From: Candidatus Woesearchaeota archaeon
GTDB taxonomy: Archaea > Nanobdellota > Nanobdellia > Woesearchaeales > SKIA01
Length of the DNA stretch: 64,000 nt
Reading direction: 5' to 3'
Assembly: GCA_047602905.1 (NCBI GenBank)
Contig: JBLKOP010000001.1
Coordinates: 26,773-90,772 of the forward strand
Shown: positions 3,962 to 57,705 of the stretch, piece after piece
How the letters are laid out: each line of letters begins with the position of its first letter
Position numbering within the stretch: position 1 is the first letter of the stretch
Notes under the pieces: model-generated
Database searches by the model: none
The model's input: the letters and a program-made list of their open reading frames with translations, nothing else
What the model was told of the DNA's origin: nothing
Translations under genes and position numbers: made by a program

Positions 3962-4696
3962 TCTACGAGTTTTTAGTGCTTCTTTAATATCAGTAATTAC
4001 ACTAAATCCATGGTAATATATTGCGCTACACAACTGAACACTGCTCGCTCCTGCGTGTACTGCTTCTTGCGCGTCTTGAGCATTCATGATGCCTCCTGAA
4101 GCAGAAAAATATGTATCAGAAAACCTTTCTGAGAGTATATGAACAAGAGTCATTGTTTCTGCTCGCAACCCTTCTCCACAACGAGAACTCTTTCCCCAAT
4201 ACAACCCAGGACTGTTAGTTGGTGAGGAATAATACACTCCTATCGTTTCAGAATCAGAAAACGTAAACCCATCAACTGCAAACGCTAGTTGATCTAATAA
4301 CGGCATTTCTTGCTCTTGACGAGCAAGCTTAAAAAGCAAAGGAACTCCGAGCACAGACCTATCTATTCCTTGAATGAACTCATTAAATGCAGAGACTTTT
4401 CTTTTAACAAATCGCCGGTATTCTTGCGTGTTCAAGTCTAAATGTTCATCGTAGAGAAGCTTAATTGGTTTCTTATGACTTCCCTTAAACCAACGACTAT
4501 TAATCTCGATAGCATCTGCTCGTAGCCTGTATACCTCATCAAACTGCTTCTCATTTCTTGGAGCGTGACTTTGAATAACTTTTGTTTTAGGACTGTATTC
4601 TTTGATATCTTCATACAACTTATTTGCTTGCTTGAGCGTAAGTATTTCTATATCTTTTTTATCAGACCAACAATTAACGCTTTGAAGCGCTCGCAT
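3956..4696 (-). CDS. dihydroorotate-dehydrogenase-like TIM-barrel protein, probably N-terminally truncated or degenerate
   Basis: C-terminal GGIMNAQDAQEAVHAGASSVQLCSAIYY resembles DHOD FMN-binding tail; ADAIEINSRWF sits where the ELNLSCPN active-site motif would be (Cys absent); 246 aa is short for DHOD. Confidence 0.4.
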   Translation of the reverse strand: MRALQSVNCWSDKKDIEILTLKQANKLYEDIKEYSPKTKVIQSHAPRNEKQFDEVYRLRADAIEINSRWFKGSHKKPIKLLYDEHLDLNTQEYRRFVKRKVSAFNEFIQGIDRSVLGVPLLFKLARQEQEMPLLDQLAFAVDGFTFSDSETIGVYYSSPTNSPGLYWGKSSRCGEGLRAETMTLVHILSERFSDTYFSASGGIMNAQDAQEAVHAGASSVQLCSAIYYHGFSVITDIKEALKTRRS

Positions 4697-4956
4697 ATCT
4701 TTTCCTTCGATTACTTCTTGATCATTTATTTCTGGAATGATATACTTTGGTGATTTTGAGTTGGTCCCTGAAAAAAGCGGTGCTTTTCCTTTTAGGATGT
4801 GTCGATCTTTTTTTCTTGGAATTGGCTCAAAGAGCGTCTATTCCTGCATCTATTGCTTTCTTTGCATGCCTAAAATTGTCAGTGAATGGCGAGGAAGCCA
4901 TCCATACGTTTCCAAAAGAAAACAACGAATCCATATAACTACCAATTAGTAGTTAT

Positions 4957-5592
4957 TTAAAAGTTTTTATGTTTTTTCTCAACACAAGAAACAATATACT
5001 CCTCGTGAATAACCTGAACAGGAAGAGAACCATCAAGAGTAACTATACGATCACTATGCATCCTAGCAAGTTCATCATAGCCCTGCTTAACAAGAGCATG
5101 AAACGAGTCGTTTTGAGACTCCATACGATCCCTCTCTCCTTTACGAGAATTCAATCTTTGAAGGCGCTCCTCTAAACTAATACTCAAATAAAACGTTACG
5201 TCAGGAACCATATCAAAAGACTCATTCATACGCTGTATCAACCCCCAATGTGGTTGTTGCTGTTGATAACGAGCAAACCCTTGATACGCAGAAGTACTAT
5301 CATAAAAACGATCCATAACAACAGTAACTCCTTGAGCAAGGTGTGGACGAATAACTTCTTCAACCATCTGAGCACGAGAAGCATTAAACAAATACAACTC
5401 AGACAAAGAACTCATATCCTCTCCGTGAAGCAACAACGAACGAATCTGCTCCCCCAAATTAGTACCTCCAGGCTCTCTACGAACAATATGATCTATGCCT
5501 TGCTTAGAAAAATACTCTTTTAGCAACTCAATTTGTGTGCTCTTACCACAACCATCAAGGCCTTCAAACGTAATTAACGGAGCAGACCTCAT
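4957..5592 (-). CDS. tmk: thymidylate kinase
   Basis: P-loop ITFEGLDGCGKST, REPGGT, DRFYDSTSAYQG. Confidence 0.85.
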   Translation of the reverse strand: MRSAPLITFEGLDGCGKSTQIELLKEYFSKQGIDHIVRREPGGTNLGEQIRSLLLHGEDMSSLSELYLFNASRAQMVEEVIRPHLAQGVTVVMDRFYDSTSAYQGFARYQQQQPHWGLIQRMNESFDMVPDVTFYLSISLEERLQRLNSRKGERDRMESQNDSFHALVKQGYDELARMHSDRIVTLDGSLPVQVIHEEYIVSCVEKKHKNF

Positions 5593-6764
5593 GAAGCCAT
5601 ACGGGGAGGAAAACCATTAATAAGTACTTTTTCTGCGCGCTGTTTAATAGCATAGTTTTCTACTACGAAATCATCTACTTCTGTCTCGTTTAGTGGATTA
5701 GAAACAACTCGTAATCTCGGTGGCTCAGCATGACTTCTTCGCCCAAGCTGCTCTAATAAATACGGGACGTGATCATAGCCAGGAGTACCCTCTTCTTCAG
5801 GAAGCTTCTTAAGCAAATCCTCAAGAACGGTGTGCGGGTGCTCTTTTCTGAGTGTATCTTGAAGCCAACGAAGATTATCTTCTTGTGCATACCAAGAAGC
5901 GCGTTTATCTGAACCAACATATATGTGGTGATCACCAATATTATGGATGAACTCTCCGGGTTTTACACCTACTTCAACAGCTATTTTTGCTGTTAATGCT
6001 GCGTATTGTGGAGGATTAAACCCTAAGCCTAAGAAATGGTCTGCGCTTCTTTGATTCATTTGCAAATCAAGGCGCTCCTCTCCAGCTCTATCAGTGTATG
6101 TGTACGCTTGAAACATGTTATGACACGGAGCAAGAGCTGCTCGTTTCAGCTTAACATCAACAGGGTTCCAAGCAGTTACTATGTGATATCTGCTCGTAGG
6201 ATCTTCTTGTAAATGAGTTACCATATCTTGAAGCTGATCAACATAAACAATTCCTTGCTCAGTTACGCCTGCAAAGTTTCTCCACTGTTCAGGATAAAAC
6301 TTACCTAGATCACCTGCCTCAGGATTATTTCCTGATAAAACAAGCTCTTCATACTCTTGTAGTGCATCCTCAAAAGCAGGAGTGTCTTTTTTGAGTTGCT
6401 TTCACTTATGATCGTCAGGAAGCTTGTTTCGATAAAAATTAAACGCGTTAGCAGTCCATATCGTCATTCCCTGCTCCAAATACCACTTCAGGTTCGTCTC
6501 GTTACGAATAAAACCCACTATTTCAGGTAGTAACTGTGATTTGTAGCCTATGGGTTTTGTTTGAGAAAGAGGAAAGCTTTCGTCACTAAGATCGTACACT
6601 GCTTGTGTACCAAAAGAACCTATGGTGTGTATAACTGTTCTACTTGCTTTTCGAAAGTTTAGCTTTGAACTCGTCAATAAATCATAGCTGTGTTGATGAT
6701 ATGCTTTGTCGTGTTTGTTTAATGAACTGTCTTCTCTTGGCTTTAACATTACTGCCCCCAACAC
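5589..6764 (-). pseudogene. thyA: thymidylate synthase ThyA interrupted by one in-frame TGA (plus strand 6402-6404)
   Basis: N-terminal ORF (6402-6764) and C-terminal ORF (5589-6224) are in the same frame, with no other stop in the 59 codons between them; conserved ThyA segments flank and span the TGA (GDLGKFYPEQWRNF, HIVTAWNP, ALAPCHNMFQAY, QRSADHFLGLGFN). Confidence 0.75.
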
Positions 6765-12324: not shown

Positions 12325-12894
12325 TCATCCAAGAACATACATCAACCAAGGACGCTTAACAACAAAACGCGTCTTTCTTAGCCAAGCATCAAGACCAAGA
12401 ACTTGACCAGCACCAAAAGAAGAAATACCAAACAATAACATAACATACACTATGTGCTCATTAACGACAAACCCGTGCTCAAGAGGTAGGAACGCAAGAA
12501 GACCTCCTTGCAGAGCAGCCAAATAAAACAAGAACATAAGAATAGCAGCAAACAACGCGCACAAACGAGTAAATAAACCAAGAATAAGACCTAGACCAGT
12601 AGCTGTTAAACCAATAATAACCAACCAATCAACTAATACGCTACCAGCAAGACTTGCAAACACAGAAACAAATGGGTTAGCAGGATGAATTGCGTGCAGC
12701 AAATACCCACTAGCACTCCACGAAGAACTAAAAAGCTTATCAAGACCTCCAGCAAGCAAAATCCAACCAATGGCTACGCGCATAAGAACAAGAGAGTAAC
12801 CAACAGCTTGGTGAGCGTACGGAAAAGACACTTCTTTACCAAACACCTCTGTCTGAACACTATCTGAGCGCATACACGTATCAATGAAGAACAA
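12325..12894 (-). CDS. DoxX-like membrane protein
   Basis: Four TM helices, DoxX-like pattern; coding strand G+T-rich. Confidence 0.4.
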   Translation of the reverse strand: MFFIDTCMRSDSVQTEVFGKEVSFPYAHQAVGYSLVLMRVAIGWILLAGGLDKLFSSSWSASGYLLHAIHPANPFVSVFASLAGSVLVDWLVIIGLTATGLGLILGLFTRLCALFAAILMFLFYLAALQGGLLAFLPLEHGFVVNEHIVYVMLLFGISSFGAGQVLGLDAWLRKTRFVVKRPWLMYVLG

Positions 12895-12966: not shown

Positions 12967-14061
12967 ATGCTTCGACACATCATTATCAGCGACACGCATG
13001 CACCTGACCAAATACGACTCATCCTAGAGCACGTACAGCAACGAGTACTTAAAGAAAGCGCTGTAGATGCGATAGTCATTAACGGAGACCTCCTAGGAGT
13101 GTTTAGTATGCAAGGAAGCAACAAACACAAACAAGAAGACATTAGCAGAGAAGAAAAAGAATCGTACCTACAAGAAGCAGCGCCGAAATGGCATAAAAAA
13201 CACGGTATGAACACGCAACTAACCGTAGAAAACGTGCTAGAATACGCACAGGAGCGCTACAAGTGGGTGGAGAAGACTTTAAGAGAAACAAGCAAGCTAG
13301 CAACAACTATTTGGAACATGGGAAACCACGAAAGCCCAGAGCACTTCTTAGTACTGCAAGAACTCCCCTTCTTACTGGAGCAACCAATGAACTTCTCCGT
13401 ACCAGACGAGCAACTACAAACAATTTTTTACAAACACGAACAAGCACTAGCAGTACTAGAACTCACTAACAACTTCGTGTACATACGAGACAAACCATAC
13501 ATACAAGAAGACACGCTCATCATAGGAATACCAGGAGAAAGCCACGCAGCAATAGGAAGTAGCAAACCAGCAAGAAAACAAGAAGAACAAACCCTTGCTG
13601 TACTTAAGAAAGCAAGCAAGAAACTACCTGAGGTAACCAACGCAATTATTTACAACCACACACAAGGAAGCTACGACAAAAACACCAGCACGTTTATGCC
13701 AGCAAGCACGGCAGCAAAAGAATTCATGAACCAAACAAGCAACCTACAACACCTTATTTGGGTGCAAAGCCACAACCACTGGAGCTACACACAACACCTA
13801 CACAAAGAAAACACTCATTACGTACTTAATAACGCAGGACTACACAACGCAATCTACAACCTCCTAGAACTCGATGAAGAACTAACCATTTATGACGTGG
13901 ACGCAAACAAAAACACCATAACCAAACTACAACAAAGCAACCAAGAAATAACAGGAGGAGACGCTTTAGCAATTATTAAAAGAAACTACCCCAACTACAT
14001 GGACGTATACCTACACAGAAAAATGCGCCTAGACGCAACAAAACAACCAAGAACTTCCTAA
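12967..14061 (+). CDS. calcineurin-like metallophosphoesterase
   Basis: Motifs DTH, GDLLG, GNHE. Confidence 0.6.
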   Translation: MLRHIIISDTHAPDQIRLILEHVQQRVLKESAVDAIVINGDLLGVFSMQGSNKHKQEDISREEKESYLQEAAPKWHKKHGMNTQLTVENVLEYAQERYKWVEKTLRETSKLATTIWNMGNHESPEHFLVLQELPFLLEQPMNFSVPDEQLQTIFYKHEQALAVLELTNNFVYIRDKPYIQEDTLIIGIPGESHAAIGSSKPARKQEEQTLAVLKKASKKLPEVTNAIIYNHTQGSYDKNTSTFMPASTAAKEFMNQTSNLQHLIWVQSHNHWSYTQHLHKENTHYVLNNAGLHNAIYNLLELDEELTIYDVDANKNTITKLQQSNQEITGGDALAIIKRNYPNYMDVYLHRKMRLDATKQPRTS

Positions 14062-14513
14062 TCAGAATCAACCCACAAAAACAACCCCTTACTCTGAAGC
14101 CAAACAAACCACTTAGCGCGATCAACAACTAACTCGCCAAGAACAGCAAACGGAAGAGTAACTAAGAACACAATCCAAACCACTTGTAACGTAACTGGCT
14201 CACCAGTAAGTAAGGTAATAACAATTAAGTCCTCAACAACACCCATAACCATACCAAACACCAAAAACTCAAGAAACACCTCCAAACGCTGCAAACGAGC
14301 ACTTTTTGCGTGAGGAATAAGCGAGTGCCTATCAACAATTAATTCACCAAGAGCAGCAAACGGAACAACCACTAAAAACGAAATAACAACAGCACGCAAA
14401 TCAATAGCGTGACTCGTAGCGAAATGAATAGCAATCAAGTTCTCAATAAGACCAATAACTACACCAAACACTAAGAAACTCACAAAAATCTTTACTTGCT
14501 TACGAGACCACAC
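14058..14513 (-). CDS. membrane protein with internal tandem duplication
   Basis: Two homologous halves (FLVFGVVIGLIENLIAIHF...ALGELIVDR versus FLVFGMVMGVVEDLIVITL...VLGELVVDR). Confidence 0.4.
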   Translation of the reverse strand: MWSRKQVKIFVSFLVFGVVIGLIENLIAIHFATSHAIDLRAVVISFLVVVPFAALGELIVDRHSLIPHAKSARLQRLEVFLEFLVFGMVMGVVEDLIVITLLTGEPVTLQVVWIVFLVTLPFAVLGELVVDRAKWFVWLQSKGLFLWVDSD

Positions 14514-14587
14514 ACGAGAACATTACTTGCGCAACGTATAAACCCTTTGGTACTACTCAGCAGGATACACTAACACTGCAGCACATG

Positions 14588-15550
14588 CTACGAGGAGCAG
14601 TAGAAATATGAGCAAACTTGCTTTAGGTGTGTGAATAGTTGCTTTTTGAATTCTTGATATTCTTGTTTGTCTATTGTTTGAAGTGATAAGTACTGTACGT
14701 CTTCTTGTGTATGTAATTCTTGATTTTGTAATTGCGTGCAGTTTTTTGTGAGCGTTTCTGTGTAGTTTTGCAGTGTTCGCTTGCTTGCTTGAATCTTTCT
14801 TATTATTTGTTGTACGGGTATTTCAAATAGGTCTAGTTGTTTGTTAAGCAAATACATGTCAAGTATGTCTCGCTCTTTTGGTTGTTCTCGTGTGAGTATT
14901 GCTCGAAATTTTTCTAGAGCTATTTCTGTTTTTGGATAGCACGGAATTGTTGGGCTGTGCAGAGTTACTCCAATAACTTGTGCTTGTTCTTGCACGCCTA
15001 GAATATCTGGAAGGTTTGGAACGGTTATTTGTACGGGCTTATTTTGAAGTTCTTCGGTAAAACTTATTTCTAACTTAATACTCTGTTTTTGGTTTGTTAT
15101 TGTAGAGATATAATGCATGTGCAGAACGTATATCGCTCGGCTATTACGTAGCTGTACGTAACGCTTGTTTGTTCTGTCATGAACGAAGTCAAGTCCTGTT
15201 CTTTGAGCTATAAGTTCTATTTCGTCAAAGAGTTCTTTGACGAGGTGTTTTATTACTCTTTCTTGTTGTTGAATGGATTCTAACTCTCGTATATCGTTGC
15301 ATTGCGGGTGTGTGAAGTCAAGATCTTCGCTGATGCGATGATACTTCAGATATGCTTTTGTGAGAAGAGTCCCTCCTTTAAACACAAGAGTTTGTAACCG
15401 TTGTATCTCCTTCTTTTTTGCTGCTTGTGCGAGTTCTGAAAGAAACAAGCTGAGTCGGTAGTCCTTCTCAAACTGTTCTTCTCCTGTGGTATATTGTCCT
15501 TGTTTTTTGAGGAATTGAATATATCGTTGTAATCGTTTTTGTGTAATCAT
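14588..15550 (-). CDS. AbiEii-like nucleotidyltransferase toxin (type IV TA / abortive infection)
   Basis: FKGGTLLTKAYLKYHRISEDLDF motif; 4-bp ATGA overlap with upstream AbiEi-like gene. Confidence 0.6.
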   Translation of the reverse strand: MITQKRLQRYIQFLKKQGQYTTGEEQFEKDYRLSLFLSELAQAAKKKEIQRLQTLVFKGGTLLTKAYLKYHRISEDLDFTHPQCNDIRELESIQQQERVIKHLVKELFDEIELIAQRTGLDFVHDRTNKRYVQLRNSRAIYVLHMHYISTITNQKQSIKLEISFTEELQNKPVQITVPNLPDILGVQEQAQVIGVTLHSPTIPCYPKTEIALEKFRAILTREQPKERDILDMYLLNKQLDLFEIPVQQIIRKIQASKRTLQNYTETLTKNCTQLQNQELHTQEDVQYLSLQTIDKQEYQEFKKQLFTHLKQVCSYFYCSS

Positions 15551-16158
15551 AGGAGTTGTTGTGCTCGTTTCTGAACAGCTAGAGGGTATTTTGTGAGGTA
15601 CGGATTATTATTTGGTATTTTCTGTATAAGTTCTTGAGGGGGCTGTTCTTTATAATATACAAAATCCATGAACGTTTTTTCTGTATTACTATAAAACATT
15701 GTTAGCTGGTTTTTCGTCTTAATCTTGTTAATCCCAAAACCAAATAATTTTTTTTTGAGTTTACGAAATTCAATTTTTGTTCCTTGAACTGTACGTGTTC
15801 GAGAAAGTTTGTTATTCAGAATGACTATTGTGTTATGTCCTTGCCAGACGACGTTGTTTCTTTCTAAAGCGGTTGTAAGTCCAAGATACCAATCAATTTT
15901 GAGCTTGTTAAGTACCACAGAAGTCATTTCTAGTGCTGTGTAGTTGGTAAAATCAAATCTGTGCTCCTCAGTATCGCAAATATAGTAATATCCATTTAGG
16001 ATATAGGTAACCCAACCCTGTTTTCGTAATTGATATATGATGCGTTTAGGATATGCTTTATCCTGAAATAACACTTCTAATTTATCTCTAGAAATAATTC
16101 TTGTCTTATTTTGCTCTAGATAGTGTAAAAGAATGTTTTTAGGAGCTGTGAAATCCAT
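15547..16158 (-). CDS. AbiEi-like antitoxin / transcriptional regulator
   Basis: Position and size upstream of AbiEii-like gene; wHTH-like N-terminus. Confidence 0.5.
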   Translation of the reverse strand: MDFTAPKNILLHYLEQNKTRIISRDKLEVLFQDKAYPKRIIYQLRKQGWVTYILNGYYYICDTEEHRFDFTNYTALEMTSVVLNKLKIDWYLGLTTALERNNVVWQGHNTIVILNNKLSRTRTVQGTKIEFRKLKKKLFGFGINKIKTKNQLTMFYSNTEKTFMDFVYYKEQPPQELIQKIPNNNPYLTKYPLAVQKRAQQLL

Positions 16159-16428
16159 TACAATAAGAATGGATTAATTTATTTATATACTTAATTGTTT
16201 CAAATAATTCCTTTTCGTGACGTTTTTGAAACAAAAATATTTATTTTCTAGAGTACACTCACCATGTTTGCGGTGTGTGTACAAAAGTTAAGAGAGGTGA
16301 TTTTAGGAATTAATGAACGTATAAACTGCCTCGCCCACCAGTGCTTAATAAAGATAACTTGAAGAAGGCATATGAGTACATTCAAAAATATGCCTTGATG
16401 ACTCCTTAGATGTCAGCAAAGCTATATA

Positions 16429-16503
16429 TGCCCCGTCCGGGATTTGAACCCGGGTTACCGCCTTGAAAGGGCGGAGTGATTGGCCGGACTACACTAACGG
16501 GGC
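16429..16503 (-). tRNA. tRNA-Glu (anticodon TTC)
   Basis: Cloverleaf folds by hand: acceptor GCCCCGT/ACGGGGC, anticodon stem CCGCC/GGCGG with loop CTTTCAA; TATA about 30 bp upstream on minus strand. Confidence 0.8.
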
Positions 16504-18171: not shown

Positions 18172-18293
18172 TGAGCCCAGAGGGATTTGAACCCTCAACC
18201 ACTGGTACACTCAGAGACCTAAGTGCTAACACTAAGGAAATTCCTTATTGCCTCATATAAGACCAGCGCTCTACCAGGTTGAGCTATGGGCTC
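18172..18293 (-). tRNA. tRNA-Ile (anticodon TAT) with a 48-nt intron at the canonical 37/38 position
   Basis: Acceptor GAGCCCA/TGGGCTC, D-stem GCTC/GAGC, anticodon stem CTGGT/ACCAG, loop CTTATA then intron TGAGGCAATAAGGAATTTCCTTAGTGTTAGCACTTAGGTCTCTGAGTG, T-arm GAGGG-TTCAAAT-CCCTC. Confidence 0.7.
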
Positions 18294-20854: not shown

Positions 20855-20878
20855 TGAAGAAGGTGCGTTTCTAAAATG
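20855..20878 (+). repeat. direct repeat copy 1 (TGAAGAAGGTGCGTTTCTAAAATG)
   Basis: 18-nt identical core plus AAATG shared with 22292-22315; retains coding potential HFRNAPSS on minus strand. Confidence 0.7.
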
Positions 20879-20898
20879 GTGTTTTTGGGTTAACGAAG

Positions 20899-21666
20899 CT
20901 ATTTGTTTGCTTGTAGGCGTTCTTTTACTTCTGAGAGAGTAAAGTACTTCGCATTTACTTGCATAACCTCATGAAAAGAAACTGGCTCTTGTAGAAGAGC
21001 TACCATGTCCTCATCCCATCTGTTGTAGAGTTTTTTTGCTTGCGAAAACATACGTATAACTAGCTCATCAGTGTTTTCATGCGCGCACTTTGTTGTTACT
21101 AATTGCATTGATATAGGAAGTTGGTGCTTGATTATTTGGTATATATCGTAGTGGTCTCGTGGCTTGTTTCGTTGTATAGTTGCAGCAACCTTTTCTGCGA
21201 TAAGCTCTTGTTTATCTAGACAAAATACTTCGTAAACAGGTATGTTCTCGTAGTAGTGAGATATTTGTTGTTTTTGCGGCTTCTTAAGTAGTGTTGCGTT
21301 CTCATTAAGATCAACGTATATTGTGTCTGTTGTTTGCGTGAATGTTTCGTACTCGCAGATGATACGAACAAACCCTTTCACGTCTTTTCCTGTTGTTATT
21401 GCTTGTATGAACGGTATTTGCCTGAGTAGTTGTTGTATGTCTTTGCGTGCTTGTTTGAGATTTGTTACAGTAAAATCTATGTCTTCTGAGAGCCTTGCAT
21501 GATTAAGAAATATTTTGTTTAGTGCAGTTCCTCCCTTAAAGAAAATGTTTTTTACATCTTTGATTGCGTAGAGTACTTGTGTGAGGTAGTAGTCTTTGAG
21601 GATTAGTCGCTGTGCGAATCCTGTTTTTGCTGCTGTTTGTATTATACGTTTCTTTTCTTCATCCAT
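20899..21666 (-). CDS. AbiEii-like nucleotidyltransferase toxin, second copy
   Basis: FFKGGTALNKIFLNHARLSEDIDF; start taken at MDEEKK because the annotated 90-aa N-terminal extension is low-complexity and overlaps the upstream gene. Confidence 0.6.
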   Translation of the reverse strand: MDEEKKRIIQTAAKTGFAQRLILKDYYLTQVLYAIKDVKNIFFKGGTALNKIFLNHARLSEDIDFTVTNLKQARKDIQQLLRQIPFIQAITTGKDVKGFVRIICEYETFTQTTDTIYVDLNENATLLKKPQKQQISHYYENIPVYEVFCLDKQELIAEKVAATIQRNKPRDHYDIYQIIKHQLPISMQLVTTKCAHENTDELVIRMFSQAKKLYNRWDEDMVALLQEPVSFHEVMQVNAKYFTLSEVKERLQANK

Positions 21667-22223
21667 TGTTTGGTTTTTTCTTTTGGTTCTATTCGTATGT
21701 TGTGTCCTTGTATTGTGTTGTTTTGTGCTTCTTGGAGTCTTTTTTTTGTCGTTTTTTTGAATTTGTATCTCGTGTTTAGTATTGTTGTTGTGTTGTTTCT
21801 TTTGTTTGTGTAAATATCTACTTGTTGAGGTATTTGGTCTGTTAGATTGTAATAATTTGCTGCTGCCCACCCTCCTATGAAGTAGTCTTGTGAGTTCATC
21901 ATCTCGTCTGCTATAATAAATTCGTGCTCGTACCATGTGTTGTTTGGTGCTTGTATTGGTAGGAGATAGTATTTGTTTTTGTTCAGTTTGAGGATGCGCT
22001 TTTTTTGTAGAAGACGGTGTATTATGTAATAGAGTTGTTGTTTGTTTGTTGCGTGGTGTTTGATGTCTTCTTGTGTGAAGAAGTACTGGTTGTTGAACTC
22101 AAGTTCTTGAATGATGCGTACTTCTCGTTGAGAAAGAGAGGAAATATCATTATTTTTTGACATAATCAAAGATAAGTGATGTTTATTTATAAATGCAGGG
22201 GTTTTTTGTGTCTGTGCAAACAT
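21642..22223 (-). CDS. AbiEi-like antitoxin, second copy
   Basis: Upstream partner of AbiEii-like gene, 25-bp overlap; TATA about 29 bp upstream. Confidence 0.45.
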   Translation of the reverse strand: MFAQTQKTPAFINKHHLSLIMSKNNDISSLSQREVRIIQELEFNNQYFFTQEDIKHHATNKQQLYYIIHRLLQKKRILKLNKNKYYLLPIQAPNNTWYEHEFIIADEMMNSQDYFIGGWAAANYYNLTDQIPQQVDIYTNKRNNTTTILNTRYKFKKTTKKRLQEAQNNTIQGHNIRIEPKEKTKQWMKKRNV

Positions 22224-22288: not shown

Positions 22289-22573
22289 TTATGAAGAAGG
22301 TGCGTTTCTGAAATGATTTTGTTGCTGCTTTCTTCGCTGAATAAGTCGTTGTAACTTAGCATTCATCTTTGCGCGAGTATCGCAGCCTTGAAGCTCTTTG
22401 TGCTCGGTATGCTTAAGTAAGGTATTATCTCCAAACGAATCTCTTAGACCATCCCGGTAATCATCCCAATCGCTATACGTAGGGGTTATGAAGTAGTTAG
22501 TTAATTGGTGTGTAGGAATTGTTTGTTGTGGCGTTACGTACCCATTTCTTCGCCGATCCTTTTTTGTGACCAT
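22289..22573 (-). CDS. hypothetical protein (94 aa)
   Basis: ORF; C-terminus ...NHFRNAPSS encoded within repeat copy 2. Confidence 0.3.
   Translation of the reverse strand: MVTKKDRRRNGYVTPQQTIPTHQLTNYFITPTYSDWDDYRDGLRDSFGDNTLLKHTEHKELQGCDTRAKMNAKLQRLIQRRKQQQNHFRNAPSS
22292..22315 (+). repeat. direct repeat copy 2 (TGAAGAAGGTGCGTTTCTGAAATG), overlaps 3' end of gene 22289-22573
   Basis: See copy 1; the two copies bracket the second AbiEi/AbiEii module. Confidence 0.7.
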
Positions 22574-30984: not shown

Positions 30985-32458
<1,474 letters not shown>

Positions 32459-32564
32459 TCTTTTTTTTTCAACAAAGAAAATCAAGAAAACGATGAACAA
32501 GTTCATCAAACAAAAACACGTTGCGTGTCACTCAAACCCTTTCCCATTCACCAACCACACGATC

Positions 32565-32637
32565 GGGCTCTTAGCTCAGTTGGTAGAGCGCCCGCTTTGC
32601 AAGCGGGAGGCCACGGGTTCGACTCCCGTAGAGTCCA
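32565..32637 (+). tRNA. tRNA-Ala (anticodon TGC) in the 16S-23S spacer
   Basis: GGGCTCT acceptor with G3:U70, anticodon loop CTTTGCAAG. Confidence 0.85.
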
Positions 32638-32877
32638 TTTACGCCACGCGCGTCAAAAAAGACCGTGTGGTATAATGAAAAACCGATCACGACGTAACAA
32701 TCGTGATCTCAGACAGAGATGCAAGTTCACTGCAGATTGTACCTACAATCAACGTACCAAGCAGTGTTCTTCACAACGAATTGCATTCATGACGTCACGC
32801 ATACACAAACCACAATATCCTGGAAATAACACCAAATTTTAGTAACGCAAGTTACTAAAAGACGCTAAACACTACAC

Positions 32878-35765
32878 TAGGTGTTTAGCGGATTGGAGGA
32901 ATGTTTCTTGGTGGATAGCTTGGCTTATCAAATGCGATGAAGGACGTGGCAAGCTGCGAAAAGGTTGGGCGAGGCGCAAGCAGCCTACGAACCCAACATA
33001 TCCGAATGCGACATCGCCAAAGAATACCGACAGGTAAGCAAACGCGGGGAATTGAAACGTCTTAGTACCCGCAGGAAAAGAAATCAACAGAGATACCCTT
33101 ATTAGCAGCGAGCGAAAAGGGCAAAGGGCAAACTGAATCCTCTGCAGAAATGCAGTTGGAAATGTAGTGTATAGGGACCTCACAACGGTACCTCTCTTTG
33201 AGATATGAAGTCCGCTGGAAAGCGGCAGCACAGAGGGTGAAACTCCCGTAATAGAATCAAAGAAGGACCAGAGGAATCCCGGAGTAAGGCGTCTTGGTTT
33301 TGGCGTCTGAAGATAGGAGTCATCAACTTCTAACCCTAAATAATCGATAAGTCCGATAGAGAACAAGTACCGTGAGGGAAAGCTGAAAAGAACCCGTGAC
33401 AGGGAATGAAAAGACCTTGAAACCAAGAAATTATAGTGAAGTACGCAACTAACGAGGTTGTGTACTGTTCGTTTTGAATAACGAGCCCGGGAGTGCGTCT
33501 CTGTGGCGAGGAAAACTCGACACGAGTGATCCGAAGCGAAAGCGACAGCTTGCAGCTTGCAAGAAGCGAGGTATGAAAGTGCCTGGAGTCACAGGGATTC
33601 GACCCGAAACCGGTCGAACTAGGCGTGGGTAGGGTGAAGCGTCGGTAAAACGACGTGGAGGCCCGAAGAGGTGCTGTGAACAAGCGTTCTCCTAACCTGC
33701 GTCTAGGGGTGAAAAGCCAATCGAGACCGGTGATAGCTGGTTCCTACCAAAGTTGACCGTAGTCAAGCCTTGAGCGAGACCGTATTCGCGGTAGAGATAC
33801 GGATTGGGGATGCAGGGGAAGAAATTCCTCGGTTCCTTGTCCAACTCCGAATGCGAATACATCGTAGACCTCAGGAGACGGTGGCACGGGGTAAGCCTGT
33901 GTCACGAGAGGGAAACAACCCAGATGAATGTTAAGGTCCCAAAGTACTGTTTAAGTGTTAACGGGTGAAGATTGTTGGTGTCCATAGACAGCGAGGAGGT
34001 TGGCTTAGAAGCAGCCACCCTATAATAAGTGCGTAACAGCTTACTTGTCAAGGGCGCCAGTATCGAAAATGGACGGGGCTAAATCAGTCACCGATACATT
34101 CAGCAGAAATGCGGTAGGTAGGCGTAGTGGTCGGGTAGAAGCGTGTTCGTGAGATCACGTGGACTAGCCACTAACGAAAATCCGGGTAATAGTAGGATCT
34201 GAGCATAGTGAGAATCTATGTCACCGAAAGGGCAAGGGTTCCTTGACACTGTACATCAGTTAAGGGTTAGTCGATCCTAATTCCCATCCTAACTGGATGA
34301 GAGAAAGAAAGGGAAACAGGTTAATATTCCTGTACCAAAGTACTAGACGGCGACGTGAAGTCGTATAGCCGACGCTTTGGGCTAAGAAAACACAGTCAAA
34401 TGTGTTAAGCAAGACATGTCTTTGGAGTGCTGTCATGGCGAGAAAAAGACAAAATTGTGATGAGTGCTTCGTATGAAGCATTTTTCTGATGCCTAGAGCC
34501 CATGAAAAGGAAATACGAAGCGACGTACTTTGATCGTACCCAGAACCGGCACAGGTGCCCCTAGGTTAGAAGCCTCAGGTGTGAAAGGATACTGTAGTTA
34601 AGGGAATTCGGCAAATTAGCCACGTGCCTTCGGCATAAGTGGTCCCTGCGCTTGTAGCAATGCGAGTGCAGGGTGCAATAACAAAGGAGTTCCGACTGTT
34701 TAACAAAAACTTAACTGGCTGCTAACCCGCAAGGGCTTGTATAGCCGGTGACGTCTGCCCAGTGCCAATACCTAAAAGTCCCGTTCAAGGGGCCTAAGGG
34801 CTGGTAAACGGCGGGGGTAACTATAACTCTCTTAAGGTAGCGAAATGCCTTGCCGTTTAATTGACGGCCTGCATGAATGGCGTAACGAGATCTCCACTGT
34901 CCCTAACTACACCCTTCCGAAAATTCCTCCTGGTGCAAAGGCCAGGGACTTCCAGTGGGAAGTGAAGACCCCGTGAAACTTTACTGTAACCTGTTGCTGT
35001 GATGTGGCTTTTGACGTGAAGGCTAGGTAGTAGCAATCGAAGGGCGCGCGCTAGCGCGTCTGGATGCGAAAGATGGGACACTACCCTTCAACAACTGCAT
35101 TACTTACCTCCAAAGAGAGGGACACCAGCAGGCGGACAGTTTGGCTGGGATGGCACACCGTCGAAAATGTATCGATGGTGCCCAAAGGTTGGCTCAGACG
35201 GGTCAGAAATCCGTCGTAGAGTGCAAGAGCAAAAGCCAGCCTAACTGGGATCTCAACATGACAGATCTCAGTACAGAAATGTAGGTCTAGCGAACCCCTG
35301 TAGCTCCTTGATGGGGCTCAGGTATGACCGAAAAGTTACTCCGGGGATAACAGAGTTGTCCCGCCCGAGAGCTCGTATCGACGGCGGGGCTTGCTACATC
35401 GATGTCGGCTCTTCCTATCCTGGCCGTGCAGAAGCGGCCAAGGGTGAGGGTGTTCACCTATTAAAAGGGATCGTGAGCTGGGTTCAGAACGCTGTGAGGC
35501 AGTTTGTTTATTATCTACTGGAAGTGTGGACTATCTGAGAGGAAGGATCGTTTAGTACGAGAGGAACGATGGTTCGTCGCCACTGGTCTATCGGTTGTCT
35601 TACAAGGCAGGCCGAGCAGCTACGCGATATCTGATAAGCGCTGAAAGCATCTAAGTGCGAAGCAGTCCTCGAAAAGAGATAGCACAACTCCGCGCAGAAC
35701 ACGCGGTTGATGGGACTGGGATGTACGCACCAAGCTTTTGCGAGGTGTTTAGTCCGCGGTTTCCA
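32878..35765 (+). rRNA. 23S rRNA (about 2.9 kb; ends approximate)
   Basis: GATGAAGGACGTGGCAAGCTGCGAAAAG near 5' end; sarcin-ricin loop region GTACGAGAGGAAC present; GC-rich relative to flanks. Confidence 0.85.
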
Positions 35766-35913
35766 ACAGGTTGGTTACCAATCTTTTGGTTTTAGTTCCT
35801 TTTGGATATTGTGGTTTGTGTATGCGTGACTTCATTTTTTTTCTTATTTTTTTGTTGTTTCTTCGGTTTTTTCTTCGTTACTTTTGTAAAGGCGTGTTTC
35901 TTTTTTTCTTGTT

Positions 35914-57587: not shown

Positions 57588-57705
57588 GCGGATGTAGCTC
57601 AGCCTGGTTAGAGCACTACGCTCATATTGATGAGCACTGAGATCAAGTTATTGATTGATGACAGGAGATACGTAGGGGTCCGGAGTTCAAATCTCCGCAT
57701 CCGCA
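57588..57705 (+). tRNA. tRNA-Met (anticodon CAT, elongator or Ile2-type) with about 43-nt intron
   Basis: Acceptor GCGGATG/CATCCGC, anticodon stem CTACG/CGTAG, loop CTCATA then intron; TATA 30 bp upstream; T-run downstream. Confidence 0.7.

Follow-up and report, generated by a model that had tools for sequence, protein, structure and literature searches.

We analysed a 64-kb stretch of Candidatus Woesearchaeota DNA (contig JBLKOP010000001.1; 'the window' denotes the whole of this stretch), in which a gene pair for an AbiEi-like antitoxin and an AbiEii toxin lies behind the 3′ end of a tRNA-Glu(TTC) gene. The pair, which together with its promoter we refer to as the cassette, is probably a self-contained toxin-antitoxin operon in the chromosome of this uncultured DPANN archaeon that was captured at tRNA-Glu(TTC) and later immobilised. 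That it forms a self-contained unit is suggested by homology borders shared with related cassettes, by a conserved TATA box and by an inverted repeat with compensatory change. A foreign origin is suggested by the low GC content of the cassette, by the absence of the pair from the nearest relatives and by a copy in another Woesearchaeon that is bounded by tRNA-Glu fragments. As a defence or addiction module the AbiE pair is unremarkable and had been annotated before, and its position is one where integrated elements are typically found; the interest lies in the related loci rather than in the window.

The AbiE operon and its promoter

The tRNA-Glu(TTC) gene (16429–16503), the gene for the AbiEi-like antitoxin/repressor (15547–16158, 203 aa) and the gene for AbiEii, a DUF1814 nucleotidyltransferase toxin (14588–15550, 320 aa), are all encoded on the minus strand. 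The tRNA gene is intact and has no encoded CCA (ARAGORN; Rfam RF00005, 62.5 bits), and its 3′ end precedes the AbiEi ATG by exactly 270 nt. The two AbiE reading frames share an ATGA start/stop overlap at 15547–15550 and form one operon with the antitoxin gene first, a gene order that is kept in four related cassettes (L026, L027, L028 and L111). The original prediction had named both the overlap and a distance of about 270 bp from the tRNA-Glu 3′ end, and both proved accurate; its assignment of the pair to the AbiE family was likewise upheld by profile searches, with matches to PF08843 and to the PADLOC AbiEii and AbiEi models.

At 99.4 bits (3.9e-28), the match of AbiEii to Pfam PF08843 exceeds the cut-off of 22.5, and the PADLOC AbiEii model matches at 6.7e-36 over residues 10–312. 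Its catalytic motifs, of the Pol-beta-type hG[GS], DxD and C-terminal K..R..RD..D pattern, are KGGT (58–61), SEDLD (74–78) and KERDILD (KERD..D, 225–231), and the KGGT, SEDLD and KERD..D residues are invariant across 27 homologues. In a structure comparison of the predicted AbiEii model (predicted local distance difference test score, pLDDT, 90.8), the top 13 matches in the Protein Data Bank (PDB) were MenT4, MenT3/TglT, JHP933 and MenT1; the match to MenT4 (6y56) had E = 1.5e-6 and a template-modelling (TM) score of 0.55–0.59, and 6y5u was among the best matches as well. Sequence identity to the MenT toxins is just 13–17%. Identical proteins, in a Woesearchaeota metagenome-assembled genome, are already named AbiEii and AbiEi family antitoxin by NCBI. 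Taken together, the profile matches, the invariant catalytic residues, the MenT-like fold, the NCBI names and the ATGA overlap confirm, at the level of sequence and predicted model, that the 320-aa protein belongs to the AbiEii DUF1814 family and has a MenT-like fold.

For AbiEi, the PADLOC model PDLC02273 matches at 2.8e-25 over 165 residues and 14 further AbiEi models match as well. No Pfam match was found for this protein, and the NCBIfam model TAA_AbiEi gave 16 bits, far under its cut-off of 150. The structural model of AbiEi is poor (overall pLDDT 59, from a shallow alignment of 7 sequences): residues 6–60 are predicted to adopt an H-E-H-H-E-E winged-helix topology at a pLDDT of about 75, and the middle of the protein falls below 50. 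The top PDB match of this model is the S. agalactiae AbiEi (6y8q), and it is a weak one (E = 0.013, TM 0.21). A sequence-level search of the PDB with both proteins gave no match, and a profile search yielded just a methyltransferase match, which was judged spurious.

Directly upstream of the AbiEi gene lies a promoter/operator block (16159–16245, minus strand) that aligns in four cassettes. It contains a TATA box, TATATAAA at 16189–16182, located 28 nt ahead of the AbiEi ATG, a spacing from which a leaderless mRNA is predicted. An inverted repeat of 10 nt, exact in both halves, directly precedes the TATA box and has the arms TTGTTTCAAA (16234–16225) and TTTGAAACAA (16204–16195); in L111 the two arms are altered together in a compensatory manner, to ATTTCAAA and TTTGAAAT. 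Since the block is conserved in related cassettes and both arms change together in L111, the inverted repeat is a plausible predicted AbiEi operator. The homology of the window cassette begins at 16239 in the comparison with L026 and at 16245 in that with L111; the region shared by the three cassettes extends from 81–87 nt ahead of the AbiEi ATG to the vicinity of the AbiEii stop codon.

Related cassettes and inserts at the tRNA-Glu end

The closest relative of the window cassette is found in L026 (GCA_007128245.1), another Woesearchaeon, and again in an independent assembly, L109 (ENA ERZ27301262). The two cassettes are 81.5% identical at the nucleotide level over 1633 bp, in a match that begins 81 nt ahead of the AbiEi ATG and ends just short of the AbiEii stop codon, and their AbiEi and AbiEii proteins are 83% and 78% identical, respectively. 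There is no intact tRNA at the L026 cassette; a 29-nt tRNA-Glu 3′ fragment (28/29 identical) lies 166 nt upstream of it, and CCCGGACGGGGCA, the last 13 nt of tRNA-Glu and hereafter the core, follows 45 nt after its stop codon. Within 4.7 kb of L109, five same-strand cores delimit four units, which carry DUF4097, a HEPN-MNT pair, the AbiE pair and a 263-aa gene, the AbiE cassette of L026/L109 being a discrete 1.85-kb unit between two cores. A profile scan of the units of this array detected no recombinase. The window cassette occupies the position of the first cassette after tRNA-Glu and has no outer core, and the link is positional. The third cassette, in L111 (70% nucleotide identity), follows a RelE-like gene, and a tRNA fragment is missing there; here too the homology sets in ahead of the ATG, at a distance of 87 nt.

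Two further features of the array concern its ends and its tRNA remnants. Both assemblies (L026 1–4717 and L109 1–4682) break at the first repeat, and L026 1–101 is identical to 4617–4717. Right after the 29-nt fragment, at L026 1977–2000, is the sequence GTCGGGATTTGAACATCCC, which resembles the reverse complement of a tRNA T-arm, and two tRNA remnants may face each other at this position.

The core is repeated as a direct repeat that bounds inserts in L024, L026/L109, L152, L166, L168 and L179. In L024, an insert of 1.5 kb that carries genes for a TrmB-like protein and a methyltransferase sits directly after tRNA-Glu(TTC) and is closed by a 60-bp repeat consisting of the 13-nt core and downstream flank. 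A metagenome scan with the last 22 nt of the tRNA yielded 69 loci, 4 of them with further same-strand cores downstream. The insert of L152 carries an HNH-like gene (assigned by eye from the sequence, with no Pfam match) and that of L168 a PBECR2-DUF2283 pair, while L179 contains an RHH-MazF (MazEF) pair and then a HEPN-MNT pair, the first of these inserts measuring 3 kb and including extra genes. L166 (2406–4486) has two single-gene inserts, and behind each of them the tRNA end recurs together with about 50 nt of native flank. In L122 and L157, which are syntenic with L166 upstream of the tRNA (72% over 1957 nt), the tRNA is immediately followed by the flank TAAACCAACCGAAAGGGGATT; in L166 this native flank is displaced behind each insert, and the comparison with the empty L122 and L157 gives a clean empty-versus-occupied pair.

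Core-bounded inserts are 0.5–3 kb long and often consist of one gene or one toxin-antitoxin pair, with toxin-antitoxin pairs accounting for 5 of about 11. In several lineages the repeat starts at an identical 13-nt position, and it frequently runs on for 40–50 nt into the host-specific flank. When 32 tRNAs of all kinds were considered (from the window and from loci other than those of the window strain), only a tRNA-Glu had such a repeat. No recombinase was found in the related core-bounded cassettes scanned. We put forward tentatively, as possible and still doubtful, that tRNA-Glu(TTC) is a gene-capture platform in Woesearchaeota and their relatives, which takes up integrase-less cassettes serially at its last 13 nt through a recombinase encoded elsewhere. 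Such a platform may amount to an integron-like array without IntI or attC, with cassettes that are mostly toxin-antitoxin or defence pairs and apparently have their own promoters. Its cargo may be AbiE, HEPN-MNT, MazEF and PBECR2-DUF2283, and the window AbiE pair may then be a captured cassette lacking its outer site. The literature we searched held no description of very small, integrase-less, tRNA-core-bounded cassettes in DPANN archaea, which is not proof of novelty.

That the AbiE cassette is a gene cassette of the integron type, from an attC cluster without an integrase such as has been reported for some archaea, seems to us extremely improbable. Integrons are known from archaea, Nanoarchaeota among them, and toxin-antitoxin proteins are encoded by 10.5% of the annotated cassettes of archaeal integrons (PMC9668308); the L026/L109 array shares with integron arrays its ordered small cassettes of unrelated functions, its richness in toxin-antitoxin genes and its place next to a fixed site, and the one-gene cassettes of L026 give it an integron-like look. 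However, the repeated element is the same-strand 13-nt tRNA 3′ end, often with native flank, and not an imperfect-palindrome attC. Unlike in integrons, no IntI or attC-like hairpin was seen, and the AbiE cassette has a promoter of its own that is conserved in four relatives. Moreover, neither the window nor the scanned arrays yielded a tyrosine recombinase, and the window has no repeated site.

We also surveyed AbiEii more widely, in 80 GTDB loci (L029–L108) from Woese-, Nano-, Pace-, Iain- and Hadarchaeota, Thermoplasmatales and Methanosarcinales, together with three labelled bacterial. Exact direct repeats of at least 17 nt bracket 7 of 55 AbiE pairs (about 13%), compared with 2 of 171 shifted controls (about 1%). 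The bracketing repeats, for example those of L100, L035, L091 and L040, are 17–72 nt long, some reaching 71–72 nt, and often have a one-sided diverged extension, as expected for attL/attR pairs.

The window itself contains a second, distantly related pair, AbiEii2 (20899–21666; PF08843, 3.8e-28) and AbiEi2 (21642–22223), both on the minus strand. It lies 4.7 kb from the first, and the similarity between the two is at the level of motifs only. A 33-nt direct repeat (29/33 identical, 18 exact) brackets the second pair at 20855–20887 and 22292–22324, and the upstream copy coincides with the last 11 codons of a 94-aa gene (22289–22573, minus strand). This arrangement looks like a site-specific insertion that rebuilt the 3′ end of the 94-aa gene. 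An empty site for the second pair was not found in L024, where homology stops before the repeat. Because repeats bracket AbiE pairs both in the survey and around the second window pair, AbiE pairs appear to be discrete mobile units.

Proposed capture, rival readings and base composition at the window locus

The host of the window is archaeal, as judged by a 16S-tRNAAla-23S operon at 30986–35786 and by protein homologues named Candidatus Woesearchaeota. The genes flanking the AbiE block are ordinary chromosomal ones: glycogen phosphorylase, inositol monophosphatase, peroxiredoxin, DoxX and metallophosphoesterase, and further a CNNM/CBS transporter, aminoacyl-tRNA synthetases and an S-layer protein. 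Between the cassette and the next gene (14058–14513, minus strand) is a 74-nt 3′ flank (14514–14587, minus strand) that contains the TATA box of that gene (TTTATA). This flank has no homology to its L026 counterpart (local alignment against shuffles, p = 0.40) and holds no tRNA-derived repeat at the place of the L026 one, 45 nt past the stop codon. The next gene encodes a 151-aa membrane protein and is an internal tandem duplication (14121–14271 and 14331–14482, 70% nucleotide identity); in L021 the homologous gene has other neighbours.

The AbiE genes have a GC content of 0.33–0.37 and the whole gap between the tRNA and AbiEi one of 0.31, versus 0.40–0.46 in neighbouring genes. By host, the GC content of the cassette is 0.34–0.37 in the window, 0.35 in L026 and 0.34 in L027, with flanks of 0.42–0.47. 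The original prediction did not list this drop in GC content and had pointed to a strand skew of the block opposite to that of its surroundings. The reversal as such is real: the AT skew is −0.1 to −0.4 over 14.6–16.2 kb, as against +0.4 to +0.5 in the left flank and a value near 0 immediately on the other side. We nevertheless rejected it as a sign of foreign DNA, since per-gene analysis traces the skew to gene orientation and two T-rich neighbours. On the coding strand the two AbiE genes have AT skews of +0.32 and +0.18, and the window's other soluble-protein genes range from +0.2 to +0.45. The left flank looks plus-stranded because the adjacent minus-strand genes at 12325–12894 and 14058–14513 encode T-rich membrane proteins (−0.46), which mimic a plus-strand skew.

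A number of observations at the locus speak against capture at the tRNA. The core, at 16429–16441 on the minus strand, occurs once in the 64 kb even when 2 mismatches are allowed, and local alignment of the last 42 nt of the tRNA with 14620..13900 scores below shuffled controls. No recombinase family is represented in the cassette genes or in the scanned open reading frames of the window. The cassette is present at one and the same position in all 20 near-identical (99.99–100%) Logan contigs that span the site, from two sequencing projects, and neither of the two large collections (genome_contigs and metagenome_contigs) contains the predicted empty junction, which gives no empty site for the species. 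Three relatives (L021, L022 and L024) have no AbiE at their tRNA-Glu or metallophosphoesterase loci, but they are distant (about 55% protein identity for the neighbouring metallophosphoesterase) and their synteny is rearranged; a loss of the pair in these relatives instead of a gain in the window is possible. The AT-rich, lineage-specific 189-nt spacer that leads from the tRNA to the conserved cassette (16240–16428, minus strand) matches no Rfam family and is not similar to that of L026, which is 165 nt long (local alignment against shuffles, p = 0.40); we therefore infer common descent of the tRNA-cassette linkage from position only. A general link of the AbiEii clade to tRNA genes was not seen in the 80 surveyed loci, just two of which have a tRNA nearby (tRNA-Arg upstream in L108 and tRNA-Val downstream in L033). 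Finally, the low GC content could partly reflect the Lys/Asn/Ile-rich composition of the AbiE proteins.

These results bear on what had been proposed from the sequence at the outset. The statement that the far end of the cassette has no tRNA-derived direct repeat stands, by mismatch search as well as by local alignment, and the proposed check for degenerate att repeats downstream of AbiEii turned up none in local alignment over 14620..13900. The proposal of a small defence cassette integrated at a tRNA target gains only indirect support: from the tRNA-Glu repeats that bound the L026/L109 cassette, from the use of the tRNA-Glu end as an insertion site elsewhere, from the AT-richness of the cassette in three hosts and from its absence in the distant relatives. 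The window has neither an att repeat, nor a target-site duplication beyond chance, nor a recombinase. Comparison of the tRNA-Glu locus is similarly divided, with the pair absent from distant relatives and yet present in 20/20 near-identical contigs. From the sequence comparisons, the most likely course is that the pair was captured at tRNA-Glu and was then immobilised by loss of the distal repeat.

We regard it as unlikely that the pair is instead native and vertically inherited, with its adjacency to tRNA-Glu coincidental and with relatives that have lost the pair or rearranged the locus. Vertical inheritance would fit the presence of the pair in every near-identical contig spanning the site, a coding-strand skew that is the genome's own, the lack of an att repeat, recombinase or empty site among the findings, and AbiEii relatives that are not generally tRNA-linked in the 80 loci. 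It is harder to reconcile with the closest cassette, that of L026, which is core-bounded and likewise lies behind a tRNA-Glu 3′ fragment at a similar distance, or with a cassette GC content that stays at 0.34–0.35 in hosts of GC 0.43–0.47. Also against it, AbiEi and AbiEii are far closer to their L026 counterparts than the metallophosphoesterase is to its best non-self homologue among 5.8 billion proteins, which is 57% identical. A comparison of housekeeping divergence found no other gene in common between the window and the available DNA of the L026 organism.

The pair could also be the last remnant of a larger plasmid or provirus integrated at the tRNA, whose integrase, other genes and distal att site were deleted and whose toxin-antitoxin pair was kept as its loss is lethal; we hold this to be somewhat unlikely. 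Integrase loss after integration and tandem reuse of tRNA sites are documented for archaeal elements (PMC8371274, PMC6563490), the first L179 insert has extra genes beside its MazEF pair, toxin-antitoxin pairs are frequent among the core-bounded inserts, and the non-homologous spacer could be debris. On the other hand, the L026/L109 cassette is a discrete unit beside one-gene units, which favours a small mobile form; no relative of AbiEii was found on viral contigs in IMG/VR; and profile scans of the open reading frames of the window left no virus or plasmid gene near the cassette.

An 11-nt direct repeat, GTTTATACGTT, has only two exact copies in the 64-kb window, and these bracket the low-GC block: the distal copy (14533–14543, minus strand) lies 44 nt after the AbiEii stop codon, almost at the position of the L026 core, and the second (16316–16326, minus strand) lies 103 nt after the tRNA end. 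On this repeat one could base a transposition-like insertion into the promoter of the 14058–14513 gene that duplicated 11 bp, with the tRNA just a neighbour, an explanation we consider very unlikely. The repeats of at least 17 nt around archaeal AbiE placements in the survey and the 33-nt repeat around the second window pair would be in keeping with it. As a target-site duplication, however, GTTTATACGTT was rejected: a repeat of at least 11 nt is at chance level, occurring in 7 of 15 control placements in the window, and the empty junction that such a duplication predicts was found in neither collection. Furthermore, GTTTATACGTT contains the common TATA motif, and the cassettes have no shared conserved termini or inverted terminal repeats.

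Elsewhere in the window, Rfam identifies tRNA genes at 18172–18293 (minus strand) and 57588–57705 (plus strand) that apparently have introns and were missed by ARAGORN in its default setting. Two adjacent open reading frames at 5589–6224 and 6402–6764 (both minus strand), separated by a 177-nt gap, match the thymidylate synthase family; they may represent a split or interrupted thyA, and their arrangement is the same in all near-identical contigs.

Proposed mechanism, known systems and meaning

DUF1814 toxins are known to add nucleotides to the acceptor ends of tRNAs and to block translation (PMC7450476, PMC10435456; the mechanisms of toxin and antitoxin are also treated in PMC11375011), and S. 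agalactiae AbiEi binds AbiEii and induces its auto-phosphorylation at T65 (bioRxiv 10.64898/2026.01.19.700257). Going by motif position, T61 of the KGGT motif would correspond to this phosphoacceptor. By analogy, free AbiEii in the present system would add nucleotides to tRNA 3′ ends and stop translation, and AbiEi would bind AbiEii and switch the toxin off, probably via auto-phosphorylation of the conserved Thr61. AbiEi would probably also repress the operon via the inverted repeat that directly precedes the TATA box. The toxin would be released upon viral infection or when the locus is lost, with abortive infection or addiction as the outcome.

As for its arrival, the small AT-rich cassette would have entered by site-specific recombination at the 3′ end of tRNA-Glu(TTC), through a recombinase that would act on cassettes in trans. 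The distal repeat would subsequently have been lost in the window lineage, leaving the cassette immobile and in every sampled contig. Cis-mobilisable elements (CIMEs), known from Streptococcus, keep att sites without an integrase.

The system resembles AbiE of Lactococcus lactis and Streptococcus agalactiae, which has been described as a type IV toxin-antitoxin and abortive infection system and was recently proposed to be type VII, in its antitoxin-first operon, overlapping start and stop codons, DUF1814 motifs, AbiEi profile and promoter inverted repeat. It differs from AbiE of these bacteria in its archaeal host and in the window's TATA promoter with a predicted leaderless transcript, in being known here from sequence alone, and in an AbiEi that is too divergent for the Pfam and NCBIfam thresholds; neither protein finds a sequence match in the PDB. 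With MenAT of M. tuberculosis (MenT1, MenT3/TglT and MenT4) it shares the fold of the toxin, these being the best structural matches of the AbiEii model, and the expected activity by analogy would be nucleotide addition at the tRNA acceptor end; unlike in MenAT, the antitoxin is of the AbiEi type, and the sequence identity between the toxins is low (13–17%, as above). Like archaeal tRNA-integrated elements, the cassette is situated immediately 3′ of an intact tRNA, and the inserts of its relatives are bounded by tRNA-end repeats and show serial reuse of the site. Unlike those elements, the inserts are very small (0.55–3 kb) and none has a recombinase, and the window has no distal repeat.

Taken alone, the locus contributes a further archaeal AbiE pair, one that NCBI had already named, and is of small direct value. 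The comparison with related loci provides sequence-level evidence that toxin-antitoxin pairs move among DPANN archaea as discrete units of about 2 kb, and that integrase-less inserts dock repeatedly at one tRNA end. The 13-nt core is an easy marker for finding further cassettes. If a dedicated trans-acting recombinase is indeed involved, this would be a simple cassette-capture system in very small genomes, and it could explain how their defence repertoire is renewed.

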